A stretch of 64,000 nucleotides of DNA, taken from Dehalococcoidia bacterium (GTDB lineage Bacteria; Chloroflexota; Dehalococcoidia; UBA2979). This document shows positions 24,363 to 42,146 of the stretch, piece after piece. Within the stretch, counting starts at the first letter, position 1. Every line of letters starts with the position of its first letter. Both the position numbers and the translations under genes were made by a program. The stretch covers positions 640,001-704,000 of the forward strand of contig CAXXDN010000001.1 of NCBI GenBank assembly GCA_963667465.2. The letters are read 5' to 3'. Below the pieces are notes generated by a model that was not told the origin of the DNA, did not search any database, and saw only the letters and a program-made list of their open reading frames with translations.

Positions 24363-25193
24363 CTAATGCTGCACGACTGCTCCGCCATCGACATTAATGC
24401 TCTGGCCGGTGATCCAGTTGCCCTGATCGCTGCACAGGTAGACCGTCATGTGGGCGATGTCCGAACCGTCCGAGGCGCGCCCCAGCGGCGTACCCGCCGC
24501 GACGCGCTCGTCCCAGATCCGGCCGCGCGGGATATCGTCCATGCGGAACGTGTCCACGGTACCCGGACAGATCGTGTTCACACGGATGTTATAGCGCCCC
24601 ATCTCCCCCGCCATGCAACCCGTCAGCGCATGGATACCTGCCTTGCTCGAGGCGTAGGCCGAGGCGTTCACGCTCAGCCGCTTCCCCGCGACCGAGGAGA
24701 TATTGACGATCGCGCCGCCCTCGTCCTGCTCGATCAGGTGCTGGCCGAAGTAGTGCGACATGTAAAAGGTGCCGTTGAGATTCACATCGATCACCCGCTG
24801 CCAGACCTCGATCGGGATCTCGACCGCGGGCGCGCGGTCTGGCCCGCGCGCAAACGCAGCGTTGTTGATCACAAAGTCGACCCGCCCGAACTCATCGAGG
24901 ATCCCCGCGAGCAGGGTCTGCACCGCGTCCGGCTTGCTCACGTCGCTGACGAGCGGCAGCGCGCGCTGGCCGGCGGCCTCGATCTCCTCGGCGACGGAAT
25001 GGATGTCGCGCCAGCCGGCTTCCTTTTCGTCGTCCGGGTAGCGCTCCGGCGGGCGGCCGGTGCCGGTGATCACGACGTCCGCGCCGGCCTTCGCCAGCTC
25101 GACGGCGATGCAGCGGCCGATCGAGCGCATGCGGCCCGCTCCGGTGACCACCGCTACCTTGCCCTCGAATCCCGTCAACTCGAGCCCGGCCAT
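24363..25193 (-). CDS. SDR oxidoreductase
   Basis: TGAGRMRSIG, NNAA, NISS, YASSK, ITGQSINVDGG. Confidence 0.92.
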   Translation of the reverse strand: MAGLELTGFEGKVAVVTGAGRMRSIGRCIAVELAKAGADVVITGTGRPPERYPDDEKEAGWRDIHSVAEEIEAAGQRALPLVSDVSKPDAVQTLLAGILDEFGRVDFVINNAAFARGPDRAPAVEIPIEVWQRVIDVNLNGTFYMSHYFGQHLIEQDEGGAIVNISSVAGKRLSVNASAYASSKAGIHALTGCMAGEMGRYNIRVNTICPGTVDTFRMDDIPRGRIWDERVAAGTPLGRASDGSDIAHMTVYLCSDQGNWITGQSINVDGGAVVQH

Positions 25194-31523: not shown

Positions 31524-32522
31524 ATGGCGCTCACGTTCTCGTTCACCACGCCGATCTACCTGAAGTTCTTCAACCCGGACTGGGTCAGCCCGGACTCGCT
31601 GGTCGAGCTGGCGCACATCGGCGAGGAGGTCGGTTACGACGAGATCGCCGTCTTCGACCACTTCCTCGAGCCGCCCGAGTGGCAGCCGTCCTACGCGACG
31701 AACAGCTACGACCCGATGCCGCTGCTCGGCTTCCTCGCGGCCCACACCAGCGAGATCGGCATCGCCTCCGCGACGATCAACATCCCCTACCGCCACCCCG
31801 CCGTGATGGCGAACGAGCTGGCGACGATCGACAAGCTCTCCGGTGGCCGCCTCTGCATCGGCCTCGCCGCCGGCTACCTCGCCGAGGAGTACGACACGCT
31901 CGCGCTGGACTTCGCGAATCGCGGCGCGATCGCCGACGAGTACCTCGCGGCGATGATCGAGCTGTGGACCAACGAGTACGCCTCCTTCTCCGGCGAGTAC
32001 GTGAACTTCAACGAGGTGAAGCTCGCCTCGTTCCCCGTCCAGCAGCCGCACCCGGAGGTCTGGATCCACGGCGGCAACCTGCGCGCGTTGCGGCGCGCGA
32101 TCAGCTACGGGACCGGCTGGGGCCCGATCGTCGGGCCCGGCCTCTCGACCGGCTCCGGCAGCACGGACTTCAAGATCGGCGCCACCGACGACGGCGGCAC
32201 GGACGACCCCTACGCCGAGCTCGTGCAGGCGCTGGACCAGGAGCACCCCGGCGTCCACGTGCCGCACTCCAGGACCTACACCTGGATGACCGAGGTGCTG
32301 GAGCGCGAGCGTGACGCAATCGAGGCGCGCGACGAGCCCCTCGGCCTGTGGCTCAACTTCCGCGTCGACAAGAGCACCGTCGGTGACGCCAACAGCCTGA
32401 TCGAGGAGCAGGTCGAGCGCGGCGCGACGAAGCTCAGCGTCGGCATCAACGCCGAGACGCTCGAGGATCACAACGCGACGCTGCGCGCCATCGGCGAGCA
32501 GGTCCTGCCCAACTGGCGCTGA
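31524..32522 (+). CDS. LLM-class (F420-type, Rv2161c-like) oxidoreductase
   Basis: EEVGYD...FDH, DP..LL.FLAAHT, PYRHP, TIDKLSGGR, PVQQPHPEVW. Confidence 0.87.
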   Translation: MALTFSFTTPIYLKFFNPDWVSPDSLVELAHIGEEVGYDEIAVFDHFLEPPEWQPSYATNSYDPMPLLGFLAAHTSEIGIASATINIPYRHPAVMANELATIDKLSGGRLCIGLAAGYLAEEYDTLALDFANRGAIADEYLAAMIELWTNEYASFSGEYVNFNEVKLASFPVQQPHPEVWIHGGNLRALRRAISYGTGWGPIVGPGLSTGSGSTDFKIGATDDGGTDDPYAELVQALDQEHPGVHVPHSRTYTWMTEVLERERDAIEARDEPLGLWLNFRVDKSTVGDANSLIEEQVERGATKLSVGINAETLEDHNATLRAIGEQVLPNWR

Positions 32523-33674: not shown

Positions 33675-35039
33675 GTGAAGATCCCACAGCGCCCGCCGCC
33701 GCTGGAGCAGCTCATCGAGGATCTTGGTGGTGATCCGGAGTTCATGTGGGGTGTCATCGCGACGAGCCGCCCCGTCGATGACAGGGGTCGCTACTTGCAC
33801 TGGGACCAACTGCGCAGGCGCACCCCTCCAGAGGGGTTGACCCACGAGGCGTGGTGGCTCGGCATGTCGATGGCGCGCCGGGGGGTCGCCCGGACGCTCC
33901 CGCTATCCGATGTCGACCACCGGCCGTTCCACTTCAGCAACATCGACCAGATCCAGGAACTGGTCCACCGCATCGACCAGCAGGCAAGCGGTCAGATCGT
34001 CGCGGGGGAAGTGGTAACGAGCCTCCAGGCGAGCGATCGTTACCTCGTGAGTTCCCTCCACGAGGAAGCCATCGCGTCCAGCCAACTTGAGGGCGCCAGT
34101 ACGACGCGACGCGTTGCCAAGGAGATGCTGCGGACCGGTCGGCGGCCCCGCGATCGCAGCGAGCAGATGATCCTCAACAACTTCGAGGTGCTCCGGGCGG
34201 CGGCAGCTTTGGCAGAGGCCGACAATCCCCTGACGCCTCGCGATGTCCTCGATCTGCAGCGCACCGCCATGGTTGAGACGCTCGAAGATGAGCGCGACGC
34301 CGGCAGGTTTCAACGTCCCGAGGACAAGCGCGTCGTCGTCGAGTGGAATGACGGGACAATCATCCATCGTCCGCCTCCCGCTGGCGATCTTCCCGCGCGC
34401 CTCGATCAGCTGTGCGAGTTTGCCAACGGACTCAGCGGTGAGGGGTTCATTCACCCGGTCGTGCGCGCAATCGTTCTGCACTTTGCGCTCGCCTACGACC
34501 ACCCCTTCGCCGACGGCAACGGACGCACGGCGCGCGCCCTCTTCTACTGGTCGATGCTGCGCTCCGGATACTGGCTGACACAGTACCTCACGATCTCCAG
34601 CATCCTCCGCGGGGCGCCAGCGCAGTACGCGAGATCGTATCTGCATGTCGAAACGGACGGCGGCGACTTGACGTACTTCGTGCTCTACCAACTCGAGGTC
34701 ATCGAGCGCGCGCTCAAGGGCCTCGACGAGTACCTGAAGCGGAAGATGGCGGAGCAGCGGCGAGCCGAGCGAATATTGCGAGACAGCCGACTCCTCAACC
34801 ACCGTCAGATCGCGCTCGTGAGCGACGCTATGCGCGATCCGGACGCGTGGTTCACGATCCAGGAGCAAGCGCGGCGGCACCGCGTTACCTATGCCACGGC
34901 CCGCTCTGACCTGCTGGGGCTCGAGGAGCAAGGTCTCTTCAGCAAGACCCGCATCGGCAAGAAGTTTGTCTTCCGGCCCAGTGCCGATCTCACCGAGAGG
35001 TTCAGCGGATCTCGCACCCGGCTGGGAGCGCACAGATGA
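33675..35039 (+). CDS. Class II Fic protein (AMPylase) with C-terminal winged HTH
   Basis: HPFADGNGRTAR catalytic motif; SSQLEG inhibitory motif; NHRQ...TYATARSDLLGL. Confidence 0.92.
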   Translation: MKIPQRPPPLEQLIEDLGGDPEFMWGVIATSRPVDDRGRYLHWDQLRRRTPPEGLTHEAWWLGMSMARRGVARTLPLSDVDHRPFHFSNIDQIQELVHRIDQQASGQIVAGEVVTSLQASDRYLVSSLHEEAIASSQLEGASTTRRVAKEMLRTGRRPRDRSEQMILNNFEVLRAAAALAEADNPLTPRDVLDLQRTAMVETLEDERDAGRFQRPEDKRVVVEWNDGTIIHRPPPAGDLPARLDQLCEFANGLSGEGFIHPVVRAIVLHFALAYDHPFADGNGRTARALFYWSMLRSGYWLTQYLTISSILRGAPAQYARSYLHVETDGGDLTYFVLYQLEVIERALKGLDEYLKRKMAEQRRAERILRDSRLLNHRQIALVSDAMRDPDAWFTIQEQARRHRVTYATARSDLLGLEEQGLFSKTRIGKKFVFRPSADLTERFSGSRTRLGAHR

Positions 35040-36241
35040 CGGCTCCGCTGGCGGGCATTCGCGTGATCGAGGCGGCGACGTGGCTGGCGGCGCCCTCGGC
35101 GGCGGCGCTGCTGGCCGATCTCGGCGCTGACGTGATCAAGATCGAGCCGCCGGGCGGCGACCCCTGGCGGCATTTCGATCCGAGCTCGATGGGCTTCGAG
35201 GAGCCCTCGGCGATCCAGTACGGCTTCGAGTTCGACAACCGCGGCAAGCGCTCGATCGCCATCGACCTGCGGCAGGCCGGCGCGCCGGAGCTGGTGCGGC
35301 GGCTCTGCGAGGGCGCCGACGTCTTCGTCACCAACCTGATGCAGCGCGAGCGCTGGGGCATCGACGCGGCGACGCTGCGCGCCGCCAACCCGGCGCTGAT
35401 CCACGCCGCCGTCAGCGGCTACGGCGAGCAGGGCCCCGCCGCCGACCGCGAGGGCTTCGACTACGCCGCGTTCTGGGCCAGCTCCGGCATCATGGGTCTC
35501 AGCGGCGAACCCTCCTCGCCGCCGCCGTTCTGCCGCACGGGCCAGGGCGACCACGCCACCGCGCTCAACCTGCTCAGCGCGATCCTCGTCGCGCTGCGCC
35601 TGCGCGACCAGAGCGGCGAGGGCCAGAGCGTCGAGGTCAACCTGCTGCAGACCGGGCTGTGGACGATCGGCGCCGACGTGGCCGTCGCCGCCGTCAGCGG
35701 CGAGCAGCCCCGCCGCTACGACCGCTCGCAGCCATGGAACCCGATCCGCAACTCCTATCAGACCCGCGACGGCCGCTGGCTGCTGCTCGGTATGACCCAG
35801 GCTGATCGCTTCTGGCCCCGCTTCGTCGCCATGATCGGCGAGCCCGCGTGGGCGCTCGATCCGCGCTTCGCGAACCTCGAGGGCCGCAAGCGGCACGCCG
35901 CCGAGCTGCGCCAGCGGATCGAGGAACTGATCGCCTCGGCCGACCTCGCCGAGTGGGCACGGCGGCTGGACGAGGCGGAGCTTGTCTGGGCGCCCGTCGC
36001 GACCCTGCCGGAGGCGCTGGCCGACCCGCAGGTGGAGGCGAACGGCATGCTCGAGGAGGTCCAGCACCCGGAAGCCGGCGCCTTCCGCACGCTGGCCGCG
36101 CCGTTCCACATCAGCGGCGCGCAGACCGGGGTGCGCGGACCGGCGCCCGCGCCCGGCGAGCACACCAGCGAGGTGCTGGACGAGATCGGCCTCGGCGACG
36201 ACGAGATCGCGGGCCTCGCGGCGTCCGGCGTCTTCGGGTAG
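35036..36241 (+). CDS. Class III CoA-transferase (CaiB/BaiF)
   Basis: PLAGIRV, LADLGADVIKIEPPGGD, NRGKRSI, GFD, GQGDHAT, GEHT.EVL. Confidence 0.92.
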   Translation: MTAPLAGIRVIEAATWLAAPSAAALLADLGADVIKIEPPGGDPWRHFDPSSMGFEEPSAIQYGFEFDNRGKRSIAIDLRQAGAPELVRRLCEGADVFVTNLMQRERWGIDAATLRAANPALIHAAVSGYGEQGPAADREGFDYAAFWASSGIMGLSGEPSSPPPFCRTGQGDHATALNLLSAILVALRLRDQSGEGQSVEVNLLQTGLWTIGADVAVAAVSGEQPRRYDRSQPWNPIRNSYQTRDGRWLLLGMTQADRFWPRFVAMIGEPAWALDPRFANLEGRKRHAAELRQRIEELIASADLAEWARRLDEAELVWAPVATLPEALADPQVEANGMLEEVQHPEAGAFRTLAAPFHISGAQTGVRGPAPAPGEHTSEVLDEIGLGDDEIAGLAASGVFG

Positions 36242-36286
36242 CGTGCGCCTGTCGGCGTCGCACGCGGGCGCGCGAGGAGGCTCCTG

Positions 36287-37015
36287 ATGGCCATGCAGCC
36301 GCTGCGCCGCATCGAGGCGTTCTACCCGCCGGAGCAGCTTGTGACGGCCACGCAGGGGCGCCGCCTCGGCGGCTGGGCGCTGGACCTGATCGCGATCGTG
36401 GCGACGTTCGGCGTCGGCTGGCTGATCTGGTTCCTGATCGTGGCCCAGCGGGGGCAGACGCCGGGCAAACAGATGCTCGGCATGTACATCATGCGCGAGG
36501 ACGGCAGCCGCGCCGGCGGCTGGTTCACGATCCTGCGCGAGATCGTCGTCAAGACGCTGTTCTCGATCGTGATCTCCGTGATCAGCGGGGTCACCAATGG
36601 CCTCGGCAGCCTGCTCTGGCTGCCCGCCGCCCTGTGGTGCACGTGGGATCGCGAGCGCCAGTGCCTCTGGGACAAGGTCGCCAACACCTACGTCGCGCAC
36701 TCGCCCGAGGGCTACCGCCCGCCGACCGCGGCGGAGCTGCGGATGCAGGGCGAGGAGCCGCCCGCGACGGCGGGCCGCACGACGGCCTCGCCCGCCTCGC
36801 CGTCCGGCCTCATGGACTACCCGCGCGCACGCCCCGGGCTCGAGGAAGACCCGCTGGAGCGTGACATGAGCGCAGAGGCCCTGGCCTCCACGCCCACGAC
36901 CCGCGAGAGCAGCGCCGCCGATCGCCTGCGCGAGCTGCAGCGCCTCCGCGACGAGGGCCTGATCACCCCCGAGCAGTACGAGGAGCGCCGCGCTGCCATC
37001 CTCGAGGATCTGTAG
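36287..37015 (+). CDS. RDD-family membrane protein with C-terminal SHOCT-like domain
   Basis: RRLGG..LD, GQTPGK, RQCLWDKVANTYV; LRELQRLRDEGLIT.EQYEERRA.IL. Confidence 0.85.
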   Translation: MAMQPLRRIEAFYPPEQLVTATQGRRLGGWALDLIAIVATFGVGWLIWFLIVAQRGQTPGKQMLGMYIMREDGSRAGGWFTILREIVVKTLFSIVISVISGVTNGLGSLLWLPAALWCTWDRERQCLWDKVANTYVAHSPEGYRPPTAAELRMQGEEPPATAGRTTASPASPSGLMDYPRARPGLEEDPLERDMSAEALASTPTTRESSAADRLRELQRLRDEGLITPEQYEERRAAILEDL

Positions 37016-37116
37016 CAACGAGTTGTAGCCCTCGCCCCCCACCCCGTCGCCACCCCTCCTCCCGTGGCGTAGCCTGCGCCCGGCGCAGCCGCGTCGCGTG
37101 CGAGAGGGAGGCCGCC

Positions 37117-37854
37117 ATGGGCAGGCTCGAGGGCAAGACCGCGCTGATCACCGGCGGCGCGCGGGGGCAAGGCGCCGCCGAGGCCGCACTGTTCGCCGAG
37201 GAGGGCGCGAACGTCGTACTCACCGACGTGCTCGACGCGGACGGCGAGCGGACGGCCGATACCGTCGGCGGCACCTTCCTGCACCACGACGTGACCAGCG
37301 AGGACGAGTGGGCGGCCGTCGTCGCGCGCGCCGTCGAGCTGCACGGCGGCATCGACATCCTGGTGAACAACGCCGGGATCTACATCGAGAACTCGCTCGT
37401 CGGCAGCGAACTTGACGAGTACCGGCGCGTGATAGAGGTCAACCAGATCGGCGTCTACCTCGGGATGCGCGAGGTCGTGCCGGTGCTGATCGAGCGCGGA
37501 GGCGGCTCGATCGTGAACATCTCTTCCACCGCTGGCCTGCAGGGCGCCCCCGGCTCGTTCGCCTACTCCGCGAGCAAGTGGGCGGTGCGCGGCATGACGA
37601 AGTCGGCGGCGGTGCGACTCGGCCCGCACGGCGTCCGTGTGAACTCGATCCATCCGGGCGCGGTCGACACGCCGATGATTGCCGATACGCGGATGGCCGA
37701 TCCCGCCAACCGCGAGGTGTTGCTGGGCGTGATTCCGCTGGGCCGGATGGCGCAACCCGAGGAGGTGGCGCGGCTCGCGCTGTTCCTCGCCTCGGACGAG
37801 AGTTCCTACAGCACCGGCTCTGAGTTCGTGATCGACGGCGGCCTGACGGCCTGA
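37117..37854 (+). CDS. SDR (3alpha,20beta-hydroxysteroid dehydrogenase-like), tandem copy 1
   Basis: TGGARGQG, NNAG, YSASKWAVRGMTKS, VNSIHPG, TGSEFVIDGG. Confidence 0.92.
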   Translation: MGRLEGKTALITGGARGQGAAEAALFAEEGANVVLTDVLDADGERTADTVGGTFLHHDVTSEDEWAAVVARAVELHGGIDILVNNAGIYIENSLVGSELDEYRRVIEVNQIGVYLGMREVVPVLIERGGGSIVNISSTAGLQGAPGSFAYSASKWAVRGMTKSAAVRLGPHGVRVNSIHPGAVDTPMIADTRMADPANREVLLGVIPLGRMAQPEEVARLALFLASDESSYSTGSEFVIDGGLTA

Positions 37855-37931
37855 CGCGCGCTCGCGGGCAGCCGGACGCCTCGCGTAGCCTGCGCCCCGG
37901 CGCGTAGACGCCGCGCGAGGGGGAGGCAGCT

Positions 37932-38669
37932 ATGGGCAGGCTCGAGGGCAAGACGGCGCTGATCACCGGCGGCGCGCGCGGGCAGGGCGCCGCGGAGGCG
38001 GCGCTGTTCGCTGAGGAGGGCGCGAACGTCATCCTCACCGACGTGCTCGACGATGACGGCGAGCGGACTGCTGACATCATCGGCGGCACGTTCCTGCACC
38101 ACGACGTGACCAGCGAGGACGAGTGGGCGGCGGTCGTCGCGCGCGCCGTCGAGTTGCACGGCGGACTGGACGTGCTGGTCAACAACGCCGCGATCTACAG
38201 CCCGTCCCCGTTCCTCGAAACCGAGCCTGACGAGTACCGGCGGGTGATCGAGGTCAACCAGGTCGGTGTCTACCTCGGGATGCGCGAGGTCGCTCCGGTC
38301 ATGATCGAGCGCGGGGGCGGCTCGATCATCAATATCTCCTCGGGCGCGGGCATGCGCGCCGGCTCCAGCGGGTTCGCCTACGCGGCGAGCAAGTGGGCGG
38401 TGCGGGGCATGACGAAGTCGGCCGCTGTGCAACTCGGCCCGCACGGCATCCGCGTCAACTCGATCCATCCCGGCCTGATCGATACGGTGATGCTGGGTCA
38501 GACCCGGATCGTCCAGCGGGGCAACCTCGACGCGGCGGTGGAGCGTATCCCGCTGCGCCGGGTTGGCCAGCCCGAGGAGGTCGCGAGACTCGCGCTCTTC
38601 CTCGCCTCGGACGAGAGCGCCTACAGCACCGGCTCCGAGTTCATCGTGGACGGCGGCGCGCTGGCCTGA
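37932..38669 (+). CDS. SDR, tandem copy 2
   Basis: Same scaffold, YAASK; 738 bp. Confidence 0.92.
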   Translation: MGRLEGKTALITGGARGQGAAEAALFAEEGANVILTDVLDDDGERTADIIGGTFLHHDVTSEDEWAAVVARAVELHGGLDVLVNNAAIYSPSPFLETEPDEYRRVIEVNQVGVYLGMREVAPVMIERGGGSIINISSGAGMRAGSSGFAYAASKWAVRGMTKSAAVQLGPHGIRVNSIHPGLIDTVMLGQTRIVQRGNLDAAVERIPLRRVGQPEEVARLALFLASDESAYSTGSEFIVDGGALA

Positions 38670-38745
38670 CGCGCGCGGGCTGGCGGGTTGGACGCGTGGC
38701 GTAGCCTGCGCGCGGCGCATTCGCGTCGCGCGGGAGGAGGCCGCG

Positions 38746-39483
38746 ATGGACAGGCTCGAGGGCAAGACGGCGCTGATCACCGGTGGGGCGCGCGGACAGG
38801 GCGCGGCGGAGGCGAGGCTCTTCGCCGAGGAAGGCGCAAACGTCGTCCTCACAGACGTGCTCGACGAGGAGGGCGAGCAGACGGCCGCCGAAGCCGGCGG
38901 CGCCTTCCTCCACCACGACGTGACGAGCGAGGAGGAGTGGGCGTCCGTCGTCGCTCGCACGGTCGAGCTGCACGGCGGGATCGACGTGCTGATCAACAAC
39001 GCCGGCATCTACATGCCGACGCCCCTCGTCGGCGGCGATCTCGGCGACTATCGGCGCGTGATCGAGGTCAACCAGGTGGGCGTCTACCTCGGGATGCGCG
39101 AGGTTGCGCCGGTGATGATCGAGCGCGGAGGCGGCTCGATCATCAATATCTCCTCGGTCGGCGGTCTGCGCGGCGGCGGTGTCGCGTTCGGCTACACCGC
39201 GAGCAAGTGGGCGGTGCGCGGCATGACGAAGTCGGCGGCGGTCGCACTGGGCCGCTACGGCATCCGCGTGAACTCGGTTCACCCGGGTCCGATCGAGACC
39301 CCGATGCTGTACCAGATCCCGGCTATCGAGGCGGGCGGGCTCGACGAGACGTTGCGGCGCGTCCCGCTGGGCCGGGTCGCTGAGGCCGGGGAAGTCGCGA
39401 AGCTCACGCTGTTCCTCGCCTCGGACGAGAGCGCCTACAGCACGGGCTCCGAGTTCGTGATCGACGGGGGCATGACGGCCTGA
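38746..39483 (+). CDS. SDR, tandem copy 3
   Basis: Same scaffold, YTASK; GGAGGAGG RBS; 738 bp. Confidence 0.92.
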   Translation: MDRLEGKTALITGGARGQGAAEARLFAEEGANVVLTDVLDEEGEQTAAEAGGAFLHHDVTSEEEWASVVARTVELHGGIDVLINNAGIYMPTPLVGGDLGDYRRVIEVNQVGVYLGMREVAPVMIERGGGSIINISSVGGLRGGGVAFGYTASKWAVRGMTKSAAVALGRYGIRVNSVHPGPIETPMLYQIPAIEAGGLDETLRRVPLGRVAEAGEVAKLTLFLASDESAYSTGSEFVIDGGMTA

Positions 39484-39533
39484 CGCGCGCGCGCCCGAGG
39501 GCGTAGCCTGCCTTCCGTCGAAGGGAGGCCGCC

Positions 39534-40271
39534 ATGGGCAGGCTCGAGGGCAAGACGGCGCTGATCACCGGTGGGGCGCGCGGACAGGGCGCGGCGGAGG
39601 CGAGGCTCTTCGCCGAGGAAGGTGCAAACGTCGTCCTCAGCGACGTGCTCGACGAGGCCGGCGAACGGACGGCCGACATCATCGGCGGCGCCTTCCTCCA
39701 CCACGACGTGACCAGCGAGGAGCAATGGGCGGCCGTCGTCGCTCGCACGGTCGAGCTGCACGGCGGCATCGACGTGCTCGTGAACAACGCCGGCGTCTAC
39801 CGTGGGTCGTCGCTGATCGACTGCGGCATCGAGGAGTACCGGCTCGTAATCGAAGTCAACCAGATCGGCGTCTTTCTCGGGATGCGTGAGGTCGCGCCGG
39901 TACTGATCGAGCGCGGGGGCGGCTCGATCGTCAACATCTCCTCGGTCGCCGGAATGCGCGCCGGTCGCAGCGGCTTCGCCTACGGCGCCAGCAAGTGGGC
40001 GGTGCGAGGCATGACCAGATCGGCCGCCGCGCAGCTCGGCCCGCACGGGATCCGCGTCAACTCGATCCACCCGGGCGTGATCGAGACGCCGATGCTCGCC
40101 GATACCAGCATGGCCGACCCCGCCAACATCGCGGAGGTGAGCGGACGGGCGCCGCTCGGGCGCATCGGGCGGCCCGAGGAGGTCGCGCGGCTCGCGCTGT
40201 TCCTCGCCTCGGACGAGAGCTCCTACAGCAGCGGCTCCGAGTTCATCGTTGACGGCGGCCTGATCGCCTGA
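39534..40271 (+). CDS. SDR, tandem copy 4
   Basis: Same scaffold, YGASK; 738 bp. Confidence 0.92.
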   Translation: MGRLEGKTALITGGARGQGAAEARLFAEEGANVVLSDVLDEAGERTADIIGGAFLHHDVTSEEQWAAVVARTVELHGGIDVLVNNAGVYRGSSLIDCGIEEYRLVIEVNQIGVFLGMREVAPVLIERGGGSIVNISSVAGMRAGRSGFAYGASKWAVRGMTRSAAAQLGPHGIRVNSIHPGVIETPMLADTSMADPANIAEVSGRAPLGRIGRPEEVARLALFLASDESSYSSGSEFIVDGGLIA

Positions 40272-40277
40272 CCGCGG

Positions 40278-40658
40278 CTAGCGCCCCTCGGGGAGCTGCA
40301 GCAGCTGCAGCGTGTTGCCGTCCGGGTCCGCGAAGGTGGCGACGAGGCCGCCCCACGGCTCGGGCCCGGGCGGGCGGCTGAACGCGACGCCCGCCTCGCG
40401 CAGCCGGACGTGCTCGGCCTCGATGTCCTCGACGGCGAAGTTGATCATCACGCGCAGCGGGTCGCGGGCCGGGCCGCCGATAGCCTCGTGGACGGCGATC
40501 GTGAGGCGCAGGCCACCCCACTCGAAGTCGACATGATTCGCGCGGTCGGCGCGCGGCGCGAGGCCGAGCGTCTCCACGTAGAAGTCGCGCAGCGCCCGGA
40601 AGCGCGCCGCCTCGGTCCAGACGAGGACGCCGTTGACGGGGCCGAGGCCGCTGCCCAT
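40278..40658 (-). CDS. VOC/glyoxalase family protein
   Basis: FYVETLGL, MINFAVEDIE, EPWGG..ATFADPDGNTLQL; AAGGAG RBS. Confidence 0.88.
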   Translation of the reverse strand: MGSGLGPVNGVLVWTEAARFRALRDFYVETLGLAPRADRANHVDFEWGGLRLTIAVHEAIGGPARDPLRVMINFAVEDIEAEHVRLREAGVAFSRPPGPEPWGGLVATFADPDGNTLQLLQLPEGR

Positions 40659-40698
40659 GGGGTCGCTCCTTCGCCCGCGATCGTCCCGGTGCGGCCAC

Positions 40699-41091
40699 GA
40701 GGGCGCAAGCGGTGGCAAGGAGGCCGCCTCCGGCTGCGCCGGCGAGCCCCTCATCCTCACTCTCTCCCGCCAGGGGAGAGGGGATCGGAGGGTCTCGCGG
40801 AGCCCTGAGGGCGCAAGCGGTGGCACGGAGGCGGCCCTCCGGCTGCGCCGGCGAGCCCCTCATCCTCACCCGTCAGGGAGAGAGGGGACCGGAGGGGCCT
40901 CGAGGGCGTAACAGCCGACCAAGCCCGTTGTCGGGCCGGCGAGCCCCCTCACCCCCGCCCTCTCCCCCAGGAGAGGGGGCCGGAGGGGGCTACATGGCTG
41001 AATGGAGCGGCCTCGAAGAATCCGGATTGGGGGCGTGGGGGGCGAAGCCCCCACAGAAGGAGGATCCGAGGGCGGGTGGGTGGGCTGAGCG
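40699..41091. repeat. Three tandem ~90-108-bp REP-like units plus one copy of the 29.3-kb module
   Basis: Units begin GAGGGCG at 40699, 40807, 40902 and end GGCGAGCCCC..CCTCA..GAGAGGGG..CGGAGGG; 41032-41091 matches 29311-29374. Confidence 0.8.
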
Positions 41092-41135
41092 GCGCGCAGC
41101 CCGCCACAGAGGGGACCGGAGGTGGAGGGCGCGGG

Positions 41136-42146
41136 TCAGCTGCTGCGGGGCTTTGGGCGCGGCGGTCGCCGCTTGGCGGTGGGGAAGATGTCGAGCTCGG
41201 ACTCGGGGGCGACTGCGTCGTCGAGGTGGCGGAAGGCGGCGGCGCCGATCATCGCGGCGTTGTCGGTGCAGAGCACGGGCGGGGGGATGAAGACCGGAAC
41301 CGGCGAGGCCTCGCGCACCGCCTCGCGCAGGCGGCCGTTGGCGGCGACGCCGCCAGCGACCAGCAGGCAGGCCACGCCCTCGCGCTCGGCGATCCGCGCC
41401 GCCTTGCGGGAGAGCACGTCCGCGACGGACTCCTCGAAGGCGTGGGCGACCTCGGCGGGCGGCAGGTCCGGCTCGGCGGCGACGCGCTGCGCGACGGCGG
41501 TCTTGAGGCCGGAGAAGGAGAAGTCGTCGCTGCCCGGCAGCCAGGCGCGCGGCAGCCGCAGCGAGCGCTCCTCGGCCGTCGCCGCCAACCGCGAGAGCGG
41601 CGGGCCCCCGGGGTAACCGAGGTCGAGCAGCCGCGCGACTTTGTCGAAGGCCTCGCCGGCGGCGTCGTCGCGTGTCCCGCCGAGGCGCTCGAAGCGGCCG
41701 TGGTCGAGCATCAGCAGCAGCTCTGTGTGCCCGCCGGAGACGACGAGCGCGAGCGCGGGCAGCGGGGGCTCTTCCTCGCCGAGCCAGTTGGCGCAGACGT
41801 GACCCTCCAGGTGGTCGACCGGGATCAGCGGCAGCCCGCGCGCCCAGGCGATGCCGCGCGCGGCATTGAGGCCGACAACGAGCGCGCCCGGCAGGCCTGG
41901 CCCCGCGGTGGCCGCGATCGCATCGAGGCGGTCCCAGTCGCACTCCGCCTCGGCGAGCGCCTGCCGCACCACCGGCAGCAGCGCGCGCAGGTGCTGGCGC
42001 GCCGCCACCTCGGGCACGACGCCGCCCGTTTCGGCGTGCAGCTCCTGCTGCGAAGCGACGACGCTGGAGAGCGCGCGCCGCCCATCGACGACGACCGCCG
42101 CCGCCGTCTCGTCGCAGGACGATTCGATCGCGAGCACCGTGGTCAT
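41136..42146 (-). CDS. tsaD: tRNA t6A37 threonylcarbamoyltransferase
   Basis: IESSCDETAAA, GGVVPEVAARQH, HLEGH, VSGGHT, DDAAGEAFDK, FSFSGLKTA, CTDNAAMI. Confidence 0.97.
   Translation of the reverse strand: MTTVLAIESSCDETAAAVVVDGRRALSSVVASQQELHAETGGVVPEVAARQHLRALLPVVRQALAEAECDWDRLDAIAATAGPGLPGALVVGLNAARGIAWARGLPLIPVDHLEGHVCANWLGEEEPPLPALALVVSGGHTELLLMLDHGRFERLGGTRDDAAGEAFDKVARLLDLGYPGGPPLSRLAATAEERSLRLPRAWLPGSDDFSFSGLKTAVAQRVAAEPDLPPAEVAHAFEESVADVLSRKAARIAEREGVACLLVAGGVAANGRLREAVREASPVPVFIPPPVLCTDNAAMIGAAAFRHLDDAVAPESELDIFPTAKRRPPRPKPRSS

Follow-up and report, generated by a model that had tools for sequence, protein, structure and literature searches.

The DNA analysed here, called the window below, is a stretch of 64,000 nucleotides from a Dehalococcoidia bacterium of the lineage UBA2979 (Chloroflexota; contig CAXXDN010000001.1, positions 640,001 to 704,000). 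It contains a tandem array of four genes for short-chain dehydrogenases/reductases (SDRs), each 738 bp long and encoding 245 aa, with start codons spaced 815, 814 and 788 bp apart. A preliminary description, made from the sequence alone, had reported four equal paralogues at this spacing, each preceded by the leader element GCGTAGCCTGC and a GGAGG ribosome-binding site. The open reading frames (ORFs) and the spacing bear this out: a GGAGG-type ribosome-binding site lies ahead of every one of the four ATG codons, and the window contains exactly four occurrences of GCGTAGCCTGC (37067, 37883, 38699 and 39501), one per gene, with 0.05 expected and none of 100 shuffles reaching four. The ATG of copy 3 falls within a longer ORF, of which 38746-39483 is the 738-bp gene. 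Pairwise identity of the copies is 79-83% at the DNA level and 72-77% at the protein level. Elsewhere in the genome of the window (G000, 2.97 Mb in two contigs; related genomes are named G001 etc.) the next SDR paralogue is just 49% identical, and no further close copy is present. The genes with their three variable loops (L1 to L3), and the leaders, are:

37064..37077, + strand: leader GTGGCGTAGCCTGC before copy 1, containing TAGCCT as a possible -10-like hexamer
37117..37854, + strand: SDR copy 1 (type 1); L1 37375-37419, L2 37528-37566, L3 37660-37734; 95% nucleotide identity to G001_1
37883..37893, + strand: leader before copy 2, matching the G001 type-1 leader and not that of its own orthologue G001_3
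37932..38669, + strand: SDR copy 2 (type 2, an old chimera); L1 38190-38234, L2 38343-38381, L3 38475-38549; NNAA replaces NNAG
38696..38709, + strand: leader before copy 3, with an exact GCGTAGCCTGC match
38746..39483, + strand: SDR copy 3 (type T); L1 39004-39048, L2 39157-39195, L3 39289-39363
39501..39511, + strand: leader before copy 4, nearer to the ATG (30 nt)
39534..40271, + strand: SDR copy 4 (type 4); L1 39792-39836, L2 39945-39983, L3 40077-40151

All four copies match the Pfam family adh_short_C2 with E-values of 1e-63 to 1e-66 (215-224 bits, curated cut-off 27). Classical SDRs are defined by the motifs TGxxxGxG and NNAG and by an Asn-Ser-Tyr-Lys tetrad. The cofactor motif TGGARGQG (residues 12-19) as well as D37, N109, S137, Y150, K154 and P180 are invariant in the four copies of the window and in 24 of 24 aligned copies, and NNAG is found at residues 84-87 of copies 1, 3 and 4, with NNAA in copy 2 and the entire type 2. 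Since the catalytic and cofactor residues are invariant, all four copies look catalytically intact. The AlphaFold model of copy 1 (predicted template modelling score 0.87) has a Rossmann-type fold of seven strands alternating with helices, in which D37 stands directly after the predicted strand beta2. An Asp just after beta2 points to a preference for NAD(H) in SDRs, and from D37 the four enzymes probably share it. The closest solved relatives in the PDB, aligned over near full length, are Rv2002/FabG3 (1nff, E 1e-63), 2hsd (E 7e-61) and 1hdc (E 2e-59). None of the NCBIfam equivalog cut-offs was reached, and the generic subfamily model PRK07231 alone was passed (227-251 bits, cut-off 215). Judged by sequence, the array enzymes belong to the 3alpha/20beta-hydroxysteroid dehydrogenase / FabG3 branch of the classical SDRs. 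They share the classical motifs, the Ser-Tyr-Lys residues and the length class with Rv2002 (FabG3) of M. tuberculosis and the 3alpha,20beta-hydroxysteroid dehydrogenase of Streptomyces. These two are single genes with shown steroid activity, whereas the array consists of four tandem paralogues known from sequence, whose pocket loops differ among the copies and from those of the solved enzymes.

For the comparison with related bacteria, 18 other genomes of the genus and 22 genomes of other genera were sampled with a homologue cut-off of E <= 1e-60. Homologues of the array were detected in 17 of the 18 and in one of the 22, respectively, giving a comparison set of 45 copies from 20 loci. All 45 are full-length ORFs with their own ribosome-binding site, and 42 are exactly 738 bp long. 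One copy is present at nine of the 20 loci, two at three, three at three, four at four and five at one. The array occupies a single syntenic locus, in the order CoA-transferase, RDD protein, one or more SDR genes, glyoxalase. In the whole-gene tree the copies cluster by type and not by genome, and copies 1 to 4 of the window pair with copies 1, 3, 4 and 5 of G001 at 94-96% identity, the mosaic described below being shared. The SDR types are, on this evidence, older than the species.

All 11 multi-copy arrays fit one order of types, 1-b-O-2-M-(N/U)-T-4. Type T (copy 3) is terminal in nine other multi-copy arrays and is nearest to the single-copy form. Type 4 is restricted to G000 and G001; its 5' end is type-T-like and its remainder a separate lineage. 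In G009 (L031) the sole SDR gene at the syntenic locus is of type 2 and not of type T, which suggests that other copies were lost rather than that a primitive single-copy state persists. G012 has two versions of the locus, one on a 1.29-Mb contig (L029) and one on a 6.2-kb contig (L030), with the arrays M-M-T and N-T; G012a_1 and G012a_2 are nearly identical, with no difference over nt 229-540. A recent duplication, a mixture of strains or a second locus could account for the double locus. Beyond the genus, metagenome-assembled genomes (MAGs) of Acidimicrobiia, 'Candidatus Poriferisodalis' among them (L050-L069), hold many of the nearest relatives (55-61% identity). Several sequencing runs containing window sequence are labelled as sponge metagenome, and no RNA run is listed among them. 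Gene exchange between co-resident lineages is possible.

The differences between the copies pile up in three segments, as had been described before. In residues 87-101, 138-150 and 182-206, the limits of which were chosen after inspecting the alignment, 47 of 53 columns vary, compared with 46 of 192 elsewhere (Fisher p 6e-18). In the AlphaFold model of copy 1 the first segment corresponds to the beta4-alphaE loop, the second to the beta5-alphaF loop and the third to the substrate-binding loop between beta6 and alphaG; all three are also its least confident regions. The first two segments, too, are taken by us to line the substrate pocket. The SDR substrate-binding loop between beta6 and alphaG is marked by two prolines, according to the part of the source available (PMC3662788), and the third segment is bracketed by those two prolines, P180 and P207, of which P207 is invariant alongside P180.

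Loop sequences are 87% identical within types and 46% between types, the scaffold 92% and 83% (figures that exclude G002_3, G017_3, G023_1 and the outgroup). A comparison of the ratio of non-synonymous to synonymous substitution rates (dN/dS) in loops and scaffold, proposed earlier as a check, gave 0.76-1.93 for the loops and 0.15-0.33 for the scaffold between the paralogues of the window, the loop values being not significantly above 1. Between orthologues of G000 and G001, loop dN/dS is 0-0.37 and loop dN 0-0.035. Every type has its own loop set, which is conserved from species to species.

The preliminary description had furthermore noted that shared patches among the four copies conflict with each other. 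This was reproduced: 56 sites are informative among the four copies, of which 21 support the grouping 12|34, 18 support 14|23 and 17 support 13|24, and these sites are ordered along the gene. The grouping 12|34 is found in 15 of the first 16 informative sites (nt 39-216), 14|23 is dominant at nt 544-688, and 13|24 occupies the last 30 nt. This order is non-random (adjacent sites with the same pattern, p 0.001; longest run, p 0.002; a test of the pairwise homoplasy index type, 0 of 20000 shuffles). Among the first 16 of the informative sites, 11 fall on third-codon positions.

Trees of nt 1-228, 229-540 and 541-738, calculated from the comparison set, mutually disagree. They were compared by approximately unbiased (AU) tests with re-optimised branch lengths, in which every segment rejects the trees of the other segments with log-likelihood differences of 116-580 and p-AU <= 2e-5. 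The 5' segment also rejects the whole-gene tree (difference 164, p-AU 3e-59), as it does both other segment trees. The data of the middle segment are compatible with the whole-gene tree (12, p 0.20) but reject the trees of the 5' segment (580) and of the 3' segment (148, p 1e-12); for the 3' segment, both the whole-gene tree (46, p 2e-4) and that of the middle (116, p 5e-7) are rejected. No single tree fits all segments, which upholds the earlier proposal that recombination or gene conversion has acted within the array.

The conflict is concentrated in the 5' third. Here, in nt 1-228, 14 copies of one genome group form a clade whatever their type (support 99/90), a grouping that is rejected in the other two segments (p 2e-6 and 1e-82). 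Likewise, copies 3 and 4 form a clade with their G001 orthologues (97/97) in this segment, which is rejected by the middle segment (nt 229-540, p 3e-8) and by the 3' segment (nt 541-738, p 5e-9). A map of nearest neighbours along the gene is scrambled before about nt 240 and shows type fidelity after it. Third-position distances in codons 1-76 are 0.12-0.22 within types and 0.21-0.28 between types, and beyond codon 76 they are 0.01-0.15 and 0.17-0.37, respectively. Between copies 3 and 4, dS rises from 0.10 in codons 1-76 to 0.54 in the other scaffold codons. These two copies, which differ at 153 of 289 polymorphic sites, share an identical tract of 78 nt with 19 concordant polymorphic sites in a run (p 2e-4 per pair, 36 pairs tested):

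38755..38832, + strand: gene-conversion tract in copy 3 (nt 10-87), identical to the tract of copy 4
39543..39620, + strand: gene-conversion tract in copy 4 (nt 10-87), partner of 38755-38832

Sites 63, 87 and 93 unite G000_3 and G000_4 against G001_4 and G001_5; since they group by genome, some of the conversion postdates the species split. The leaders have been swapped between types as well, and in a genome-specific manner: the leader of G001_3 is that of its neighbour G001_4, and the leader of G000_2 is that of type 1 in G001.

A second kind of mosaic is found in type 2. In the middle segment, its third-position distance is 0.17 to type N and 0.27 to type T, and in the 3' segment it is 0.20 to T and 0.32 to N. 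The chimera is supported by an AU test (p 0.005), and the mosaic is common to all seven species with type 2. Third-position distances were relied on here because the stringent diagnostic sites are few and mostly non-synonymous. This is the only well-supported event that recombined loops, and it is old. With it, the conflicting patches can be accounted for individually: those uniting copies 1 and 4 against 2 and 3 are explained by the old type-2 chimera, the patch shared by copies 2 and 4 by a common middle-segment ancestry of the types 2, N, O and 4, and the N-terminal patch 12|34 by 5' gene conversion.

The core of the leader element, CGTAGCCT, is invariant in 42 of the 45 copies, including all seven single-copy genomes, and it lies 42-49 nt upstream of the ATG, or 30 nt in type 4. 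G001_2 (19-nt gap, L021 4118-4136) and G010_4 (30-nt gap, L022 5624-5653) are without leader directly after the preceding gene, with which they are probably co-transcribed. It is plausible that TAGCCT acts as a -10 element, giving one promoter per gene. Genome-wide, the 10-mer of the leader occurs 15 times, four of them in the array, and its reversed control 11 times; exact matches of the 14-mer are limited to two array copies, and its one-mismatch matches are at control level. A leader regulon is not indicated, the copies outside the array being at control level. A scan of 36800-40500 against Rfam gave no match up to an E-value of 1, so that the leader is not a known RNA family. RNAalifold yielded a weak consensus structure (-6.5) for 42 leaders, and for this reason a structured RNA leader is not claimed.

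Taken together, these data are probably best explained by a tandem family under birth-and-death evolution, in which the leader and the 5' third of the gene evolve in concert and the diverged pocket types are stable. The array would have grown in place from one ancestral gene, each duplicated unit bringing its own invariant leader and ribosome-binding site, and the genus would now hold one to five copies per locus drawn from about nine stable types in one left-to-right order. Unequal crossing-over between units presumably brought the gains and losses of copies. Short-tract gene conversion would have repeatedly homogenised, between neighbours, the leader and the cofactor-binding end of the coding sequence, its first ~230 nt. 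The remainder with the three pocket loops may have diverged fast after each duplication, and later purifying selection would have held this loop-bearing part constant within each type. The variation of copy number at one syntenic locus and the grouping by type, except in the converted segment, are what a birth-and-death family displays.

Vertebrate NAT and CYP xenobiotic enzymes are birth-and-death families with partial concerted evolution. The array resembles them in its copy-number turnover at one locus, its orthologous types across species and the limitation of conversion to a part of the gene, with the parts that determine specificity remaining distinct; it differs in being a bacterial array of small single-domain enzymes with a conserved leader per unit, where conversion affects the leader and the cofactor-binding 5' end. 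Cassette-type diversification by gene conversion is known from pilin and surface-antigen variation, with which the array shares segmental, non-reciprocal transfer between homologous copies, whether tandem or dispersed. Unlike those systems, it has no silent or truncated donors, its variable parts are stable between species, and it is the conserved end that is exchanged.

Several points weigh against the birth-and-death reading, or against parts of it. In the tree tests, the maximum-likelihood tree of a segment is favoured by its own data, the clades for the AU tests were picked after the trees had been viewed, and the 5' segment does not formally reject type T as monophyletic (AU p 0.098). The type labels are our own reading of the tree, and the common order of the arrays was judged without a chance test. 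A scan of 36200-41200 for sigma-70 promoters and terminators returned none of either. In the loops, the proportion of non-synonymous differences significantly exceeds that of synonymous differences in none of six paralogue pairs (best p 0.058), so that positive selection is not supported and adaptive divergence of the loops is not shown; relaxed constraint after duplication would look alike. Finally, the available part of one source describes an SDR close to hydroxysteroid dehydrogenases that is inactive on the steroids tested (PMC9603792), and kinship to such enzymes may therefore not give the substrate class of the array.

Another reading is a modular system. According to it, the leader and the NAD-binding 5' third form a fixed front module that gene conversion keeps interchangeable in every unit; the homology shared in this way occasionally permits crossovers at the module boundary, which make new pocket combinations and copy sets, and the subset of the about nine types held by each species would be tuned to the alcohols or ketones of its habitat, for which the sponge labels of several runs may be a hint. 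Type 2, and perhaps G002_3, may be examples of such crossovers. We regard this as rather unlikely. That the four paralogues form mixed tetramers via their near-identical subunit-interface helices is pure speculation.

More doubtful still is an active combinatorial library, as proposed in the preliminary description, in which frequent recombination keeps reshuffling the three specificity loops into new pockets. Recombination itself is real, and type 2 does join N-like L1 and L2 to a T-like L3 and 3' end. G002_3 has a foreign 5' half that includes L1; G002, however, is a MAG of 300 contigs with 6% contamination, and G002_3 may be an assembly chimera. Similarly, one 353-nt contig of a related strain (run X8, seven differences) joins 37125-37275 to 38091-38292, thus copy 1 to copy 2, skipping exactly one 815-bp unit. 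Its joint lies in a 41-nt stretch matching both sides, and the contig could be a real hybrid of copies 1 and 2, formed by an unequal-crossover deletion, or an artefact of short-read assembly. Against the library, exchange is found mainly in the leader and the first ~230 nt, which lie upstream of the loops, and from about nt 240 on almost every copy has its nearest relative within its own type. A diversity generator would be expected to have loops that vary between close relatives, but the loop sets are conserved within types and hardly differ between G000 and G001, to judge by the identities and the loop dN given above. Neither donor cassettes nor a dedicated recombinase or reverse transcriptase were found at the locus, where all copies are complete and the flanking genes belong to other families. 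The claims that specificity loops are being reshuffled and that the array is a combinatorial enzyme library are thus not upheld.

We consider it very unlikely that the patterns arose without recombination, by convergent changes in the pocket loops and by homoplasy at GC-saturated third positions on a near-star tree. In its favour, the three four-taxon patterns are about equally frequent overall, and the diagnostic sites linking type 2 to T and S (three, 3' segment) and to N, O and 4 (six, middle segment) are almost all non-synonymous and in or near the loops. However, the patterns are spatially ordered, with the predominance of third-codon positions at the 5' end reported above, third positions alone switch type 2 from N to T, the within-type third-position distances at the 5' end are raised to the between-type level, and the 78-nt tract is identical in two copies that otherwise differ at more than half of the polymorphic sites.

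Least likely is a chimeric consensus of paralogues as the source of the mosaic: short-read contigs do break inside the array, none of those examined spans it, and some related MAGs are fragmentary, but the same four mosaics recur full-length at 94-96% in separate assemblies of other species, which makes an assembly artefact unlikely, G000 is a two-contig assembly, and contigs from two or three studies (one run possibly the window's own source; joints with sides <= 27 nt, which are most joints, were ignored) match 478-526-nt pieces across all three loops of copies 2 and 4 with no difference.

The array is embedded in a neighbourhood that includes genes for a CoA-transferase, an RDD protein, a glyoxalase, TsaD, a Fic protein, a transporter and a monooxygenase. 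The following are relevant here:

31524-32522: luciferase-like monooxygenase, 4.6 kb upstream of the array
35036..36241, + strand: family III CoA-transferase (CaiB/BaiF type), conserved upstream flank; Pfam CoA_transf_3, E 1e-108
36287..37015, + strand: RDD/SHOCT membrane protein, directly upstream of the array; Pfam RDD, E 1e-11, and SHOCT, E 2e-7
40278..40826, - strand: glyoxalase/VOC-fold protein, conserved downstream flank; Pfam Glyoxalase, E 4e-14

The CoA-transferase was found upstream at 82-97% identity in 10 of the 11 other multi-copy loci, G014 being the exception. For the RDD protein, a tblastn match upstream of the SDR gene or genes was obtained in all 18 other loci of the genus, single-copy loci included (a partial one in G009), and none at the G023 locus. 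Downstream of the array, tblastn matched the glyoxalase at all 11 other multi-copy loci and at the G009 locus, and at none of the seven type-S loci or G023. Its relatives match just 119-153 of the 182 aa of the ORF (tblastn), and the true start of the gene probably lies further inside. Direct repeats at 40694-40869, which are 108-109 bp apart (families D14 and D16; one pair of 34 nt is 100% identical), overlap the annotated N-terminus of the glyoxalase and, given the extent of these matches, are probably intergenic.

Between the transporter and the CoA-transferase lies a Fic-domain gene (33675-35039), which is present at the same spot in G004 and G012a and absent there in G001 and G010. Its G + C content at third codon positions is 0.80, compared with 0.95 in its neighbours, and together with the patchy presence this suggests that the gene was inserted and possibly acquired. 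An unrelated SDR gene (24363-25193), 12 kb upstream of the array, adjoins genes for a 2-hydroxyacid dehydrogenase and a FIST-domain protein.

Most likely, each of the four enzymes oxidises or reduces a secondary alcohol or ketone of its own, related to those of the other three, and from homology and gene context steroid-like or alicyclic substrates are plausible. In the available part of Landry et al. (2017; PMC5395668), expansions of SDRs, CaiB/BaiF CoA-transferases and luciferase-like monooxygenases are described for marine SAR202 Chloroflexi, the SDR paralogues being ~50% identical to 3alpha(20beta)-hydroxysteroid dehydrogenase or cyclopentanol dehydrogenase. There, the SDRs are proposed to oxidise alicyclic or sterol alcohols before Baeyer-Villiger oxygenation (PMC5395668). 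All three families are present in the window, the monooxygenase and the CaiB-type CoA-transferase near the SDR array, and by this context alone the SAR202 expansions fit the assumed substrates. The relatives carrying the array are likewise labelled as Dehalococcoidia or Chloroflexi MAGs, although membership of this genus in SAR202 is not established. The SAR202 paralogues, as far as the available text of that paper goes, are dispersed, anciently diverged and counted genome-wide, whereas the array is tandem with segmental gene conversion, which that text does not describe. A literature search of incomplete coverage returned no paper that treats this array or gene conversion between tandem SDR genes of bacteria.

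No new mechanism is revealed by the array, which is an ordinary gene family and not an active generator of diversity. It is a clean bacterial case of one gene evolving in two ways, with its regulatory and cofactor-binding end homogenised and its pocket end kept distinct and inherited as types. The about nine pocket variants on a near-constant scaffold form a natural series that is useful for mapping the specificity determinants of SDRs. In addition, the array offers a test of the published idea that the SDR expansions of marine Chloroflexi attack alicyclic or sterol-like compounds.

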